DNA of 64,000 nt from Escherichia coli O157:H7 (GCF_013167455.1 NZ_CP038328.1), one strand, 5' to 3'. Shown: positions 21,401 to 29,853, counted from the first letter of the stretch. The notes: generated by a model from the letters alone, not told the origin. A program made the numbers and translations.

Positions 21401-22397
21401 TGCATCGGTCAGTGGCGCGACAGGAAGCCTGTCGTTAATGACGCCACGGGATAATGTTACGCCAGTTAAACTCGAAGGGGCGATCCGGATTACCGATAGC
21501 GCGACATTAACTATCGGCAATGGCGTTGATACGACGCTTGCCGACCTGACGGCTGCCAGCCGGGGCAGTGTCTGGCTTAACAGCAATAATTCCTGTGCAG
21601 GCACCAGCAACTGCGAGTATAGAGTAAACAGTTTGCTACTTAACGACGGTAATGTTTATTTATCAGCACAAACAGCAGCGCCTGCCACAACTAACGGTAT
21701 ATACAATACGCTGACAACCAATGAACTTTCCGGTAGCGGTAATTTCTACCTGCATACCAACGTTGCAGGCTCTCGGGGCGATCAACTGGTCGTCAACAAC
21801 AACGCCACTGGTAATTTTAAAATCTTTGTTCAGGATACCGGCGTCAGTCCTCAGTCTGACGACGCGATGACGCTGGTGAAAACAGGGGGAGGGGATGCTT
21901 CGTTTTCGCTGGGCAATACTGGCGGTTTCGTTGATCTTGGGACCTATGAGTATGTCCTGAAAAGCGATGGCAACAGCAACTGGAACCTGACCAATGATGT
22001 CAAACCCAACCCGGATCCCAACCCAAATCCCAACCCAAATCCGAAGCCGGATCCAAAACCAGACCCAAAACCGGATCCGAAACCAGACCCGACTCCCGAG
22101 CCAACGCCGACACCCGTTCCGGAGAAACGCATCACGCCTTCTACCGCAGCCGTACTCAATATGGCAGCAACATTACCGTTGGTATTTGATGCTGAGCTAA
22201 ACAGTATTCGCGAGCGGTTGAACATAATGAAAGCGAGTCCACACAACAATAATGTCTGGGGGGCGACGTATAACACCCGTAATAATGTCACGGCGAGTAT
22301 ACCTTTTATTCGCCAGTTTAATCTGTTCATCAACAAGAACAGCCATTTGAAAAAGATCAGAGTTTCAGACGTGATGAAAATCGCTGATTCTGACTAA
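18456..22397 (+). CDS. ypjA: YpjA-like AIDA-type autotransporter adhesin, passenger domain intact but C-terminal beta-barrel missing
   Basis: Signal peptide MNRTSPYYCRRSVLSLLISALIYAPPGMAAF, about 1200 aa of beta-helix repeats (GG.Q.V..GG.A..T.I), Pro-rich PNPDPNPKPDP linker; translation departs from autotransporter character after about nt 22290. Confidence 0.7.
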   Translation: MNRTSPYYCRRSVLSLLISALIYAPPGMAAFTPDVIGVVNDETVDGSQRVDERGTTNNTHIINHGQQNVYGGVSNGSLIESGGYQDVGRHNNYVGQSNNTTINGGRQSIHDGGISTGTIIESGNQDVYKGGISNGTTIKGGASRVEGGSANGTLIDGGSQIVKVQGHADGTTINKSGSQDVVQGSLATNTTINGGRQYVEQSTVETTTIKNGGEQRVYESRALDTTIEGGTQSLNSKSTAKNTQIYSGGTQIIDNTSSSDVIEVYSGGVLDVSGGTATNVTQHDGAILKTNTNGTTVSGTNSEGAFSIHNHVADNVLLENGGHLDINAYGSANKTIIKDKGTMSVLTNAKADATRIDNGGVMDVAGNATNTIINGGTQNINNYGIATGTNINSGTQNIKSGGKADTTIISSGSRQVVEKDGTAIGSNISAGGSLIVYTGGIAHGVNQETGSALVANTGAGTDIEGYNKLSHFTITGGEANYVVLENTGELTVVAKTSAKNTTIDAGGKLIVQKEAKTDSTRLNNGGVLEVQDGGEAKHVEQQSGGALIASTTSGTLIEGTNSYGDAFYIRNSEAKNVVLENAGSLTVVTGSRAVDTIINANGKMDVYGKDVGTVLNSAGTQTIYASATSDKANIKGGKQTVYGLATEANIESGEQIVDGGSTEKTHINGGTQTVQNYGKAINTDIVSGLQQIMANGTAEGSIINGGSQIVNEGGLAENSVLNDGGTLDVREKGSATGIQQSSQGALVATTRATRVTGTRADGVAFSIEQGAANNILLANGGVLTVESDTSSDKTQVNTGGREIVKTKATATGTTLTGGEQIVEGVANETTINDGGIQTVSANGEAIKTTINEGGTLTVNDNGKATDIVQNSGAALQTSTANGIEISGTHQYGTFSISGNLATNMLLENGGNLLVLAGTEARDSTVGKGGAMQNQGQDSATKVNSGGQYTLGRSKDEFQALARAEDLQVAGGTAIVYAGTLADASVSGATGSLSLMTPRDNVTPVKLEGAIRITDSATLTIGNGVDTTLADLTAASRGSVWLNSNNSCAGTSNCEYRVNSLLLNDGNVYLSAQTAAPATTNGIYNTLTTNELSGSGNFYLHTNVAGSRGDQLVVNNNATGNFKIFVQDTGVSPQSDDAMTLVKTGGGDASFSLGNTGGFVDLGTYEYVLKSDGNSNWNLTNDVKPNPDPNPNPNPNPKPDPKPDPKPDPKPDPTPEPTPTPVPEKRITPSTAAVLNMAATLPLVFDAELNSIRERLNIMKASPHNNNVWGATYNTRNNVTASIPFIRQFNLFINKNSHLKKIRVSDVMKIADSD

Positions 22398-22496
22398 GAC
22401 CAACCTCCATTAGCTCTGGCGTTCCCAGCTTCGGTCTTTTTCCTGCTGATTCATTTGTATAGTCATTTCCATCAAAACGGCACAGAGGAAACGACT

Positions 22497-22703
22497 ATGA
22501 ATCAGCACAACACCCGCCTTATTCGTTTACCAGAGGTTCTGCATCGAACTGGATACGGTAAAGCTTGGATCTATCACCTCATCAACCAAAATCGTTTTCC
22601 TTCCCCCGTTAAAATCGGTGCGCGCTCTGTTGCTTTCATTGAAAGTGAAGTAGACGAATGGATTCAATTAACTATCGAAAATTCAAGAAAGCATGTTGCC
22701 TGA
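22497..22703 (+). CDS. alpA: AlpA-family phage/island regulatory protein (excisionase-like HTH)
   Basis: 68-aa ORF MNQHNTRLIRLPEVLHRTGYGKAWIYHLINQNRFP... with GAGGA Shine-Dalgarno; resembles prophage CP4-57 AlpA. Confidence 0.8.
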   Translation: MNQHNTRLIRLPEVLHRTGYGKAWIYHLINQNRFPSPVKIGARSVAFIESEVDEWIQLTIENSRKHVA

Positions 22704-23025
22704 AATAAAATGACAGTCTTCTTATTTATGAGGATTAATTCTCAGATTTGTAAAGTTTAAATCTTAAAAAAATCTATATTTAACGTAATTCTTTACGTTT
22801 TTTCTGGCAGAGCTTTTGCTATAAGGCTTAGAGATGGTTTTCTTAATATCGGGTATGGATACAGCCCACTAGCCGTACCTGTTTATTTGACGTCAAATAA
22901 AATTTTTCAAGCCATTAATATATATACCAATTAAACAAGATTCATTGTAAAAAATTTGAATTATTTTGAATTGGAATATATTTAATAAGTGAGAGTGATA
23001 TTAATTTGTTAAGTTTGAGGTGAAA

Positions 23026-28479: not shown

Positions 28480-29778
28480 ATGACGATTGCGAAGGATAGT
28501 TCGACTGATGAAATCATTCATGGAAATGATCTCCGTGGAATGGATGATTTTTACATTAAGACAACGAGTTTTGAATGCCCATACGAGCCTTGTAAAATTA
28601 AAGCCACACCTTGTAGTTTTACTATGAAACATGTTAATCAATCATATTTCAGATATGGCGATAAACATAAGGATGGATGTGGTATTCATGATCCAAGATA
28701 TAAAAACAATCATACTTCAAATGACGAAAGAAAACATAATTCGCCACCTGCTCCGGTTATATCACTTTTAAAAATTGATGTGAAACCAAGAGGTGGTGTT
28801 AAAAATGCCAGAAATATTAAAAATGAAAATCACAAGGATGAAAAAAAAGGTAATGAACATCCTGTATCTTCATCAAGTATTAAGCCAGTCGTTGACTATT
28901 ACATAAATAATAGCAATCATAATGAACAGCTATCAATCCCTCCATATGGCACGCGATCTTATAAAGATACATTTCAACTTATTTTTTACAAAAACAACAT
29001 ACGTTATTACAAACCTGCTATTTATTATGGTGTAGCCCAGTCTAATATTCGTCTGCATGAAGATTCAGATAAACATTGTATTACTTTCCTCGCAAGGGAT
29101 AAGAAAACCCAAAAACCATTTACGCTTGAAATTGATGTTTCTGACTGGAATAAAAGTCAGAAGGATGTGTTTTGGAAGGAATATGAAAAGCAAAGGAAGG
29201 AAGCTGATAGGTATTATAAGGGGCTTAAAGATAAAAGGAATGCTAAAAAATACTTGACGGTTTTCTTTTTTGGGATGCCGGATGAAAATGATAAGTTTCT
29301 ATTTAAGACAAACCACTTTAAATTAGTATATGTGGCTTTCTTGGGTAAATTTGAAAGCTCATATAATGATAGTAATTATTACATTGAAAATGATCTGTCT
29401 GTATCATCATTGAATGAACAACCCATTTCATTATCTGATATAGACCATAAAAATCATGAATATAATATTGAAACTTCATTAGATTTTAGTTCTCCTTTGC
29501 CAGAGCCAGAGCCAGAGCCAGAGCCAGAGCCAGAGCCAGAGCCAGAGCCAGAGCCAGAGCCAGAGCCAGAGCCAGAGCCAGAGCCAGAGCCAGAGCCAGA
29601 GCCAGAGCCAGAGCCAGAGCCAGAGCCAGAGCCAGAGCCAGAGCCAGAGCCAGAGCCAGAGCCAGAGCCAGAGCCAGAGCCAATAAGATCCTCTTTAAAG
29701 GAAAATACTGAGACTGTAGAAATGAACAGTAAAGTTTGGGGGAGGCTGAAAAAGATAATCACTTTCTTTAAAAAGTGA
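28480..29778 (+). CDS. Hypothetical 432-aa protein with Cys/His-rich N-terminus and about 30 tandem Pro-Glu dipeptides
   Basis: ORF with N-terminal C-x3-C...C...H...C-G-x-H pattern and a (PE)n tract encoded by the hexamer repeat at 29500-29681. Confidence 0.55.
29500..29681 (+). repeat. (CCAGAG)n hexanucleotide microsatellite, about 30 units, in frame within a CDS
   Basis: Perfect tandem gccaga repeats readable directly in the sequence. Confidence 0.95.
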
Positions 29779-29801
29779 TTTATGTTTCTGTAAAAAGCCC
29801 G

Positions 29802-29835
29802 TAGGTATCAACTGCGGGCTAAATTTTCCCTTGAT
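29802..29835 (+). terminator. Rho-independent terminator after the PE-repeat gene
   Basis: agcccg...cgggct hairpin followed by aaatttt. Confidence 0.5.
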
Positions 29836-29853
29836 GCTGGTTTTGTCTTTTAT

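Follow-up and report, generated by a model that had tools for sequence, protein, structure and literature searches.

We analysed a window of 64,000 nucleotides from the chromosome of Escherichia coli O157:H7 (GCF_013167455.1, NZ_CP038328.1), which is of the O157:H7 type and 100% identical with many O157:H7 genomes. Our analysis indicates that a block of four plus-strand genes in this window (23026–27573) is very probably the ginABCD recombination operon of a GInt-type element, encoding three proteins with the tyrosine-recombinase fold and a small helical, TnpC-like protein, and that it persists as a relic in a decayed mobilizable island. The first-pass annotation, made from the sequence alone, had described three coupled same-strand recombinase genes with an AlpA-type gene before them and a 132-aa open reading frame (ORF) after them, and had taken them for a mobile element that could not be assigned to a named one. 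All of these ORFs were found again together with evidence for the recombinase fold, and the idea of a multi-recombinase mobile-element module was right in kind. However, the module is not unassignable, as it corresponds to ginABCD of the GInts, and its exact proteins are already contained in a published ginC/ginD list.

This list is Additional file 10 of PMC10214605, which gives ginC and ginD orthologs and holds WP_001059531.1 and WP_001052051.1 at 3598106–3600136 of NC_011353.1. These are the third and fourth genes of the block in O157:H7 EC4115. Because exact O157:H7 accessions stand in the list, the block has already been catalogued as a GInt gin operon. In the corresponding survey, ginC-ginD blocks were reported in 7.5% of Escherichia replicons (Idola 2023, PMC10214605). 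An apparently unassignable three-recombinase element therefore belongs to a published class and had already been counted. GInts have been described as elements that start at the 5′ side with the ginABCD operon, continue with cargo, finish in a short AT-rich 3′ end and are flanked by imperfect repeats of 10–17 nt (Bardaji 2017, PMC5385486). The literature on them is small, amounting to a handful of publications. Their excision and integration need all four gin genes, their canonical target is the ssb stop codon, and distantly related GInts share one target site (PMC5385486).

An alignment of the third gene product, GinC, was scanned against 100,044 species genomes and gave 31 loci. Five non-enteric loci possess all four genes, with 25–41% identity, straight after an ssb gene whose product ends in ...DDDIPF, and the GinB of one ssb-site GInt scored 667 bits on the NCBIfam profile NF041502. 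A GinC with 34% identity to the O157 protein over 99% of its length is encoded by the E. coli plasmid pEQ011. A tblastn search of 72,556 plasmids with GinC showed no Staphylococcus or Enterococcus among the named genera. Homology to GinA–D of elements that behave as GInts was thus found in the ssb-site operons, with 28–41% identity for all four products, in the pEQ011 GinC and through the published list.

The operon is tight and lies on one strand, with three tyrosine-recombinase or recombinase-like genes and a small fourth gene. These are ginA (23026–24231, 401 aa), ginB (24233–25546, 437 aa), ginC (25543–27174, 543 aa, WP_001059531) and ginD (27175–27573, 132 aa, WP_001052051), and all four reading frames are intact in the window. 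The sizes are those given by the RefSeq start codons. The 543 aa of the third gene and the 132 aa of the small ORF agree with the earlier description, while 401 and 437 aa replace its 403 and 441 aa. The ATGA overlap at 25543–25546 and the abutment at 27174/27175 were likewise as described, but the first spacer (24231/24233) is 1 nt rather than 2 nt. The higher AT content of the block was also recovered, with a GC content of 0.29–0.36 over 22.5–29.5 kb against 0.43–0.54 in ypjA, the autotransporter gene on its left.

Residue conservation was read from alignments of 22 and 13 homologs, down to 26% identity, with 13 homologs for GinA and 35 for GinC. GinA matched the tyrosine-recombinase profile PF00589 at 4e-18, XerA, XerC and XerD profiles of NCBIfam, and XerC-like and XerH proteins of the PDB. 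Its candidate catalytic residues, R216, K255, H330, R333, W364 and Y374, are invariant. GinB matched NF041502 (‘site-specific integrase’) with 320.6 bits (1.7e-95) and the integrase families of PHROG; its PF00589 matches were weak and split, and a sequence search of the PDB found nothing. R195/R196, K223, R335, H358 and Y367 of GinB are conserved, and the His-II position (R332) is variable. GinC gave no sequence match in Pfam (PF00589 included), NCBIfam, PHROG or the PDB, and its fold was instead recognised from a model. Its AlphaFold2 (AF2) model, with a predicted local distance difference test (pLDDT) score of 73.7, was matched by Foldseek with probability 1.0 to Cre, XerH, Tn1549 Int and IntI. 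R228 (in APSRISE), K260, H395-x-x-R398, W418/R421 and Y430 are invariant in its homologs, and a C-x-H-x6-C motif is conserved at residues 483–492.

The fourth protein, GinD, is kept in all gin operons at 35–84% identity and is the published counterpart of TnpC/Srap (PMC10214605). Its AF2 model shows a four-helix N-terminal domain and a 38-residue helix at residues 78–115 (pLDDT 85), which fits the coiled coil expected for this ORF. A Foldseek search with the model gave no significant match, and searches of Pfam, NCBIfam and PHROG gave nothing beyond marginal Pfam matches.

The region upstream of ginA (22747–23025, plus strand) has the architecture of a GInt left end and is conserved across gin types. 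It contains TGTAAAG at 22749–22755, an inverted AATTCTTTAC at 22787–22796, GTACCT at 22875–22880, TGTAAAA at 22946–22952 and a degenerate TGTTAAG at 23008–23014 beside the ginA ribosome-binding site. The same layout of repeated TGTAAAG and GTACC was found between ssb and ginA of canonical GInts and in a second enteric gin type. The TGTAAAG repeats are putative recombinase sites. A perfect 20-bp palindrome composed of TTTATTTGAC and GTCAAATAAA (TTTATTTGACGTCAAATAAA in full) was read from the sequence at 22882–22901. Two relatives (L014 and L016) have TTTCTTTCACGTGAAAGAA at this position, with the dyad symmetry kept through paired changes, and the palindrome may be an operator or a recombinase site.

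A complete GInt of 11,903 bp was identified at the ssb stop codon of pEQ011, an IncF plasmid of E. coli (NC_023315.1; loci L042/L043, 43.7–55.7 kb of the record). Its attL reads ...CATTCCGTTCTAG and its attR ...GAACCGTTCTAAC, with CCGTTCTA as the common sequence. At the left end TGTAAAGAAT lies about 20 nt inside, counted from the crossover; the right end is AT-rich and has an inverted AATTCTTTACA motif. The cargo includes avs4 (Avs4 anti-phage) and an AbiGi-family gene. The sequence of pEQ011 minus the 11,903 bp is the empty site; hundreds of IncF plasmids contain it, with 100% identity across 334 nt. The repeated TGTAAAG motif marks GInt ends, and for an Avs4-carrying GInt of an E. coli IncF plasmid we can now give exact ends and an empty site. 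About 40 E. coli plasmids encode a GinC of the pEQ011 type. In pEQ011 a GInt, of a class described as non-mobilizable, rides on conjugative plasmids.

In Enterobacterales the gin operon was found inside a larger island. Some 25 loci from 10 genera (E. coli, Klebsiella, Enterobacter, Pantoea, Pectobacterium, Citrobacter, Kosakonia, Erwinia, Trabulsiella and Buttiauxella) have a conserved gene order, with GinC identity to the query falling from 97% to 36%. The order is a P4-type integrase gene, a DUF6387 gene, alpA, ginABCD and a 137-aa ORF; then, optionally, a PE-repeat gene and a SEN1984/BamE-like lipoprotein gene; then a 221-aa ORF, a relaxase gene and an auxiliary gene (other strand), and variable defence-type cargo. 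At leuX the island is about 16.6 kb long. Since an 18-bp repeat of the tRNA-Leu 3′ end bounds the whole of it, the leuX island is an integrative mobilizable island that has its own integrase and AlpA and encloses the gin operon. Such islands are defined by a tRNA-side integrase, a tRNA repeat at the far border and a relaxase, with no conjugation apparatus, and the relatives agree with this definition. The window has kept alpA, the DUF6387 remnant and accessory genes but neither the integrase nor the relaxase, and is a remnant of an integrative mobilizable island and not a member of the class.

The first-pass annotation had included AlpA in the element, and the 137-aa ORF as its first ‘cargo’ gene, but both belong to the island backbone and are present in a gin-less relative. 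The alpA-type helix-turn-helix gene (22497–22703, plus strand) matched PF05930 at 6e-19, in agreement with its proposed identity, and also excisionase families of PHROG. We assign it to the host island, outside the gin operon, as the predicted excisionase or regulator, because it stands after the integrase and DUF6387 genes in all intact relatives, the gin-less island L008 included. The 137-aa ORF (27671–28084, plus strand) follows ginD in nearly all enteric loci. It is also present in L008 with 66% identity, and the 60 nt upstream of it are conserved across gin types. No informative match to it was found in Pfam, NCBIfam, PADLOC or PHROG, with one marginal Pfam match (Hyccin, E = 0.001). L008 is a leuX island of E. 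coli STEC17-183 with the integrase, DUF6387, alpA, 137-aa ORF, 221-aa ORF and relaxase backbone. In its gin slot (14554–16654) the opposite strand bears a gene for a replication initiator together with a small ORF.

Comparison of islands at the same locus showed that the gin genes diverge between closely similar flanks. The leuX islands EC28 and L014 are 94–100% identical in their flanks and 57–79% in the gin cassette. At the ypjA locus, O157 and O121 are 86.6% identical on the left (to 22703) and 95.8% on the right (from 27615), and the gin proteins of O121:H19 (L004, 8639–14782) are 32–47% identical to those of O157, with ginC broken by IS600. In O121:H19, ypjA is also a pseudogene. Because the gin genes diverge between near-identical flanks, the operon behaves as an exchangeable cassette. 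The breakpoints of exchange lie at 22703 or about 22896 on the left, and at 27615, about 27664 or 28089 on the right, all within conserved flanking DNA. Such variable breakpoints in conserved DNA point to homologous exchange rather than to a clean site-specific insertion.

Terminal repeats near the ends of the block and an empty site in other genomes had been put forward as ways of fixing its limits, and neither yielded them. A repeat search over 22.3–30.3 kb gave low-identity AT-rich pairs only and no credible terminal direct or inverted repeats. No inverted TGTAAAG or AATTCTTTACA motif was found downstream of ginD in the window, TGTAAAR showed no window-wide enrichment, and a promoter and terminator scan gave no more hits than shuffled controls. 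When a chimeric query of alpA joined to the 137-aa ORF was compared with 5,426 complete E. coli genomes, none matched it across the join, and no empty site was obtained for the window copy; as a positive control, the empty site of pEQ011 was found at 100% identity. Cargo followed by an AT-rich 3′ end and an attR repeat of attL, as in GInts, was thus not found in the window. Two candidate right ends in relatives were discarded. The motif TTAATCTGTAAAGTTCCGA of L003 and L014 lies in direct orientation inside an HNH gene and was judged shared cargo, and the CTTTACA of L025 is part of a GC-rich coding sequence and has no ssb repeat in its vicinity.

The O157 copy is a truncated relic and not an element that can be delimited. 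On the right, homology to the intact islands L006, L010 and L011 ends at 30206, where the island is truncated by an IS30 transposase fragment (30192–30947, minus strand). On the left, no integrase remnant was found between ypjA and the DUF6387 gene. Every E. coli genome with the gin cassette has one copy of it, in the chromosome, and the cassette is at least 99% identical in 299 genomes, including O157:H7 and O55:H7.

The block had been thought to begin where the ypjA translation loses its beta-barrel, at about 22290. The break was placed correctly, at 22291, but it is the endpoint of a deletion and not the end of an element. The 5′ part of ypjA/ehaD (18456–22291, plus strand), identical to the RefSeq locus of FRIK1989, is cut where the alignment with EC4115 breaks. 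At the junction (22290–22292), window position 22291 joins positions 6792 and 8715 of L002. Lost with these 1,922 bp are 751 bp at the end of ypjA, the DNA between the two genes and 745 bp at the start of the DUF6387 gene. A 3′ remnant of the latter (22293–22397, plus strand; a partial coding sequence in FRIK1989) remains in frame with the truncated ypjA, so that an ORF at 18327–22397 reads across the junction from a barrel-less ypjA/ehaD into the last 35 DUF6387 codons. Most O157:H7 genomes have an intact ypjA of 4,587 bp, after which come the DUF6387 gene (intact in EC4115), alpA and the gin operon, in that order. The junction was found in only 4 of the 5,426 genomes (ECP19-598, 17B6-2, G5295 and FRIK1989), and the coincidence with ypjA is therefore a rare secondary deletion. 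The reading of an insertion that disrupts ypjA was rejected. A further lead, that ypjA and yejO both precede DUF6387, was dropped, as the two share autotransporter portions only.

Several points weigh against the GInt assignment and have to be set beside the evidence above. In canonical GInts ginA lies at the extreme 5′ edge beside a housekeeping target gene, whereas here it lies behind the alpA of another element. The similarity switches at 22746/22747, the left side tracking the alpA allele and the right side being conserved across gin types; since the 20 nt left of the first TGTAAAG follow the alpA allele, the placement need not be due to Gin-mediated integration. The O157 copy is most likely immobile, as judged from missing parts, because the partner end, the island integrase and the relaxase are all absent. 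Homology to the experimentally studied Gin proteins of Pseudomonas is indirect, through the published PSI-BLAST list and the ssb-site relatives. Finally, GinC is said to be without the RHRY motif and the catalytic tyrosine (PMC10214605), or to have the motif except its first arginine (PMC5385486), but the box-I Arg, HxxR and Tyr were invariant in every GinC homolog examined, ssb-site elements included. Either the statement in PMC10214605 would fail for the GinC branch present here, or this branch may differ. The full catalytic-type residue set of GinC is relevant to which of the Gin proteins act as DNA-cleaving enzymes.

Other readings of the block differ mainly in what they take to be the unit. 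The block might be a complete, autonomous small GInt from about 22747 to about 29.8 kb, with the 137-aa ORF and the PE-repeat gene as cargo and still able to excise. Such a unit would fit the sharp left junction at 22747, the end of the AT-rich block near 29.8 kb, a TGTAAAA at 29789 just before a terminator hairpin, and the four intact gin frames. But EC28-type islands and a gin-less island also have the 137-aa ORF with its downstream hairpin, the PE-repeat gene is merely present or absent between islands, and, unlike pEQ011, the block has no inverted right-end motif or direct repeat after ginD. With TGTAAAR not enriched and the empty site absent from the genome set, we consider this improbable. 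The mobile or exchangeable unit could instead be a cargo-less gin cassette, from about 22747 to about 27614–27664, which moves between islands at a fixed position. This would account for the divergent gin proteins between common flanks in O157 and O121 and for the EC28 and L014 islands that differ in the cassette, and in the second gin type ginD is closely followed by an inverted pair of TGTAAA. The window gin type is without that motif, however, the breakpoints differ by comparison and lie in conserved flanks, as expected from homologous rather than site-specific recombination, and an empty junction between alpA and the 137-aa ORF was not found. On balance a cassette moving as a unit is unlikely, though less so than the autonomous element.

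It is about equally doubtful that the operon has been domesticated as an island module and is no longer a transposon, serving secondary-site integration, helper-plasmid cointegration or multimer resolution from a slot that may also hold a replication module. Its position is conserved among enteric loci with GinC identities to the query between 97% and 36%, all three recombinases have kept catalytic-type residues, 38 nt separate a left-end motif from an inverted right-end-like one in the region before ginA, and the sister island has a Rep gene in the same slot. Yet this alternation with Rep comes from one island, and the same conservation is expected if distant GInts share one target, as published for ssb. 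The analogies with Tn554 or a recombinase-in-trio (RIT) element that the first-pass annotation drew were partly apt. A small TnpC-like fourth gene, beside one ordinary and one large recombinase, recalls Tn554, a likeness drawn in both GInt papers, and RIT elements have three adjacent recombinase genes. Tn554, however, has two recombinases and is known from Staphylococcus and Enterococcus, and RIT elements lack a fourth gene, encode three recombinases of 315–410 aa and end in inverted repeats of 34 bp (PMC10214605). The operon has three recombinase-fold genes before the small gene, with products of 401, 437 and 543 aa, a ginD and no terminal inverted repeats. The accessions are in the GInt list and absent from the list of strand-biased circularizing elements (SEs). 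Membership in either family is hardly credible. SEs themselves were also rejected: their proteins form separate sequence clusters (PMC10214605), and the O157 accessions occur only in file 10 (GInt) and not in file 3 (SE) of that paper. Matches to the NCBIfam ‘gamma-mobile-trio’ profiles were negligible. A prophage integrase cluster was rejected as well.

Under the preferred reading, a GInt-type operon left in a decayed island, the following history can be proposed. The O157:H7/O55:H7 lineage would have inherited a decayed copy of the island between ypjA and ssrA, with the integrase end gone and the relaxase end cut by an IS30 fragment and then by a prophage remnant. The strain of the window has further lost 1.9 kb across the ypjA/DUF6387 boundary. 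By analogy with published GInt genetics, the four Gin proteins would jointly act on TGTAAAG-type sites near the ends, excise a circle and integrate it site-specifically; excision and integration of circles with staggered cuts of about 6 nt have been reported (PMC5385486). The O157 copy has left-end-type sites only, no partner end having been found. The enteric cassette may derive from a captured GInt, or may be a nested cargo-less GInt or a working island module. A bolder possibility, to which we give little weight, is that in Enterobacterales ginABCD is no passenger transposon but serves a family of tRNA-integrating mobilizable islands as a second recombination module, which would be conserved and exchangeable and would share its slot with a replication module found there in other islands. 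All three recombinase-fold proteins, GinC included, would be catalytically active, and the module would act on paired TGTAAAG/CTTTAC sites upstream of ginA. If so, it may link an excised island with a helper plasmid or a secondary site.

The remaining genes to the right of the operon vary between islands. The PE-repeat accessory gene (28480–29778, plus strand, from the ORF call) is absent from EC28-type islands. Its (GCCAGA)x30 tract at 29499–29678 encodes (Pro-Glu)n and has 21, 40, 13, 5 and 10 copies in five relatives. (GCCAGA)n is thus a hypervariable variable-number tandem repeat inside a protein-coding gene, and its opposite strand would read (Gly-Ser)n. Residues 151–284 of the PE-repeat protein gave a weak PADLOC match (PD-Lambda-4_B, 1.9e-7; candidate anti-phage), with no partner gene recognised. 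The BamE-like/SEN1984-family lipoprotein gene (29854–30156, minus strand, so named in RefSeq), an island accessory, has the PE-repeat gene on one side and the 221-aa ORF on the other in intact relatives. The IS30 fragment is followed by a degraded lambdoid prophage (with ninG, antiterminator and holin genes and copies of IS66 and IS1203) that carries espW and espM2 and ends at ssrA (45521–45883). Both espW and espM2 are effector genes of the type III secretion system. A review places espM2 in O-island 108, and the gin block is probably at the ypjA-proximal end of this O-island.

The host island can be compared with known islands. It resembles tRNA-integrating mobilizable islands with CP4-57-like left ends and the ROD21-like ‘EARL’ islands. 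It has a P4-type integrase beside tRNA-Leu, an 18-bp far tRNA repeat, AlpA, DUF6387, a relaxase and a SEN1984-family lipoprotein gene. K-12 CP4-57 has intA, yfjH and alpA followed by yfjI, and no gin genes. ICEKp258.2, a ROD21-like ‘EARL’ element, resembles the host island in its adjacent DUF6387 and AlpA genes and its MOBQ relaxase, but there these two genes are the last two of 28 ORFs in the annotation table of the paper, a table that, as read, shows no gin operon. Some RefSeq records use the name ‘SEN1984 family lipoprotein’ for the lipoprotein, and SEN1984 is a gene of the Salmonella ROD21 island. Together with the adjacent DUF6387 and AlpA genes of ICEKp258.2, this hints that the host island is related to the ROD21-like family.

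With regard to the operon, Tn554 and SEs are likewise multi-recombinase, site-specific systems, and they too depend on a small helical protein, which has been published as the structural counterpart of GinD. The GInt of pEQ011 comes from the same species and has the same four-gene order, but it is complete, with ends and an exact empty site, and none of these end features was found for the O157 copy. In common with GInts in general, the O157 operon has four coupled genes on the same strand, encoding two clear tyrosine recombinases, a larger recombinase-fold third protein and a small helical fourth one, and it shares with ssb-site GInts the repeated TGTAAAG layout upstream of ginA. GInts have been described as free-standing and non-mobilizable, whereas the enteric gin operon occupies a constant place within islands that have a P4-type integrase, AlpA and a relaxase.

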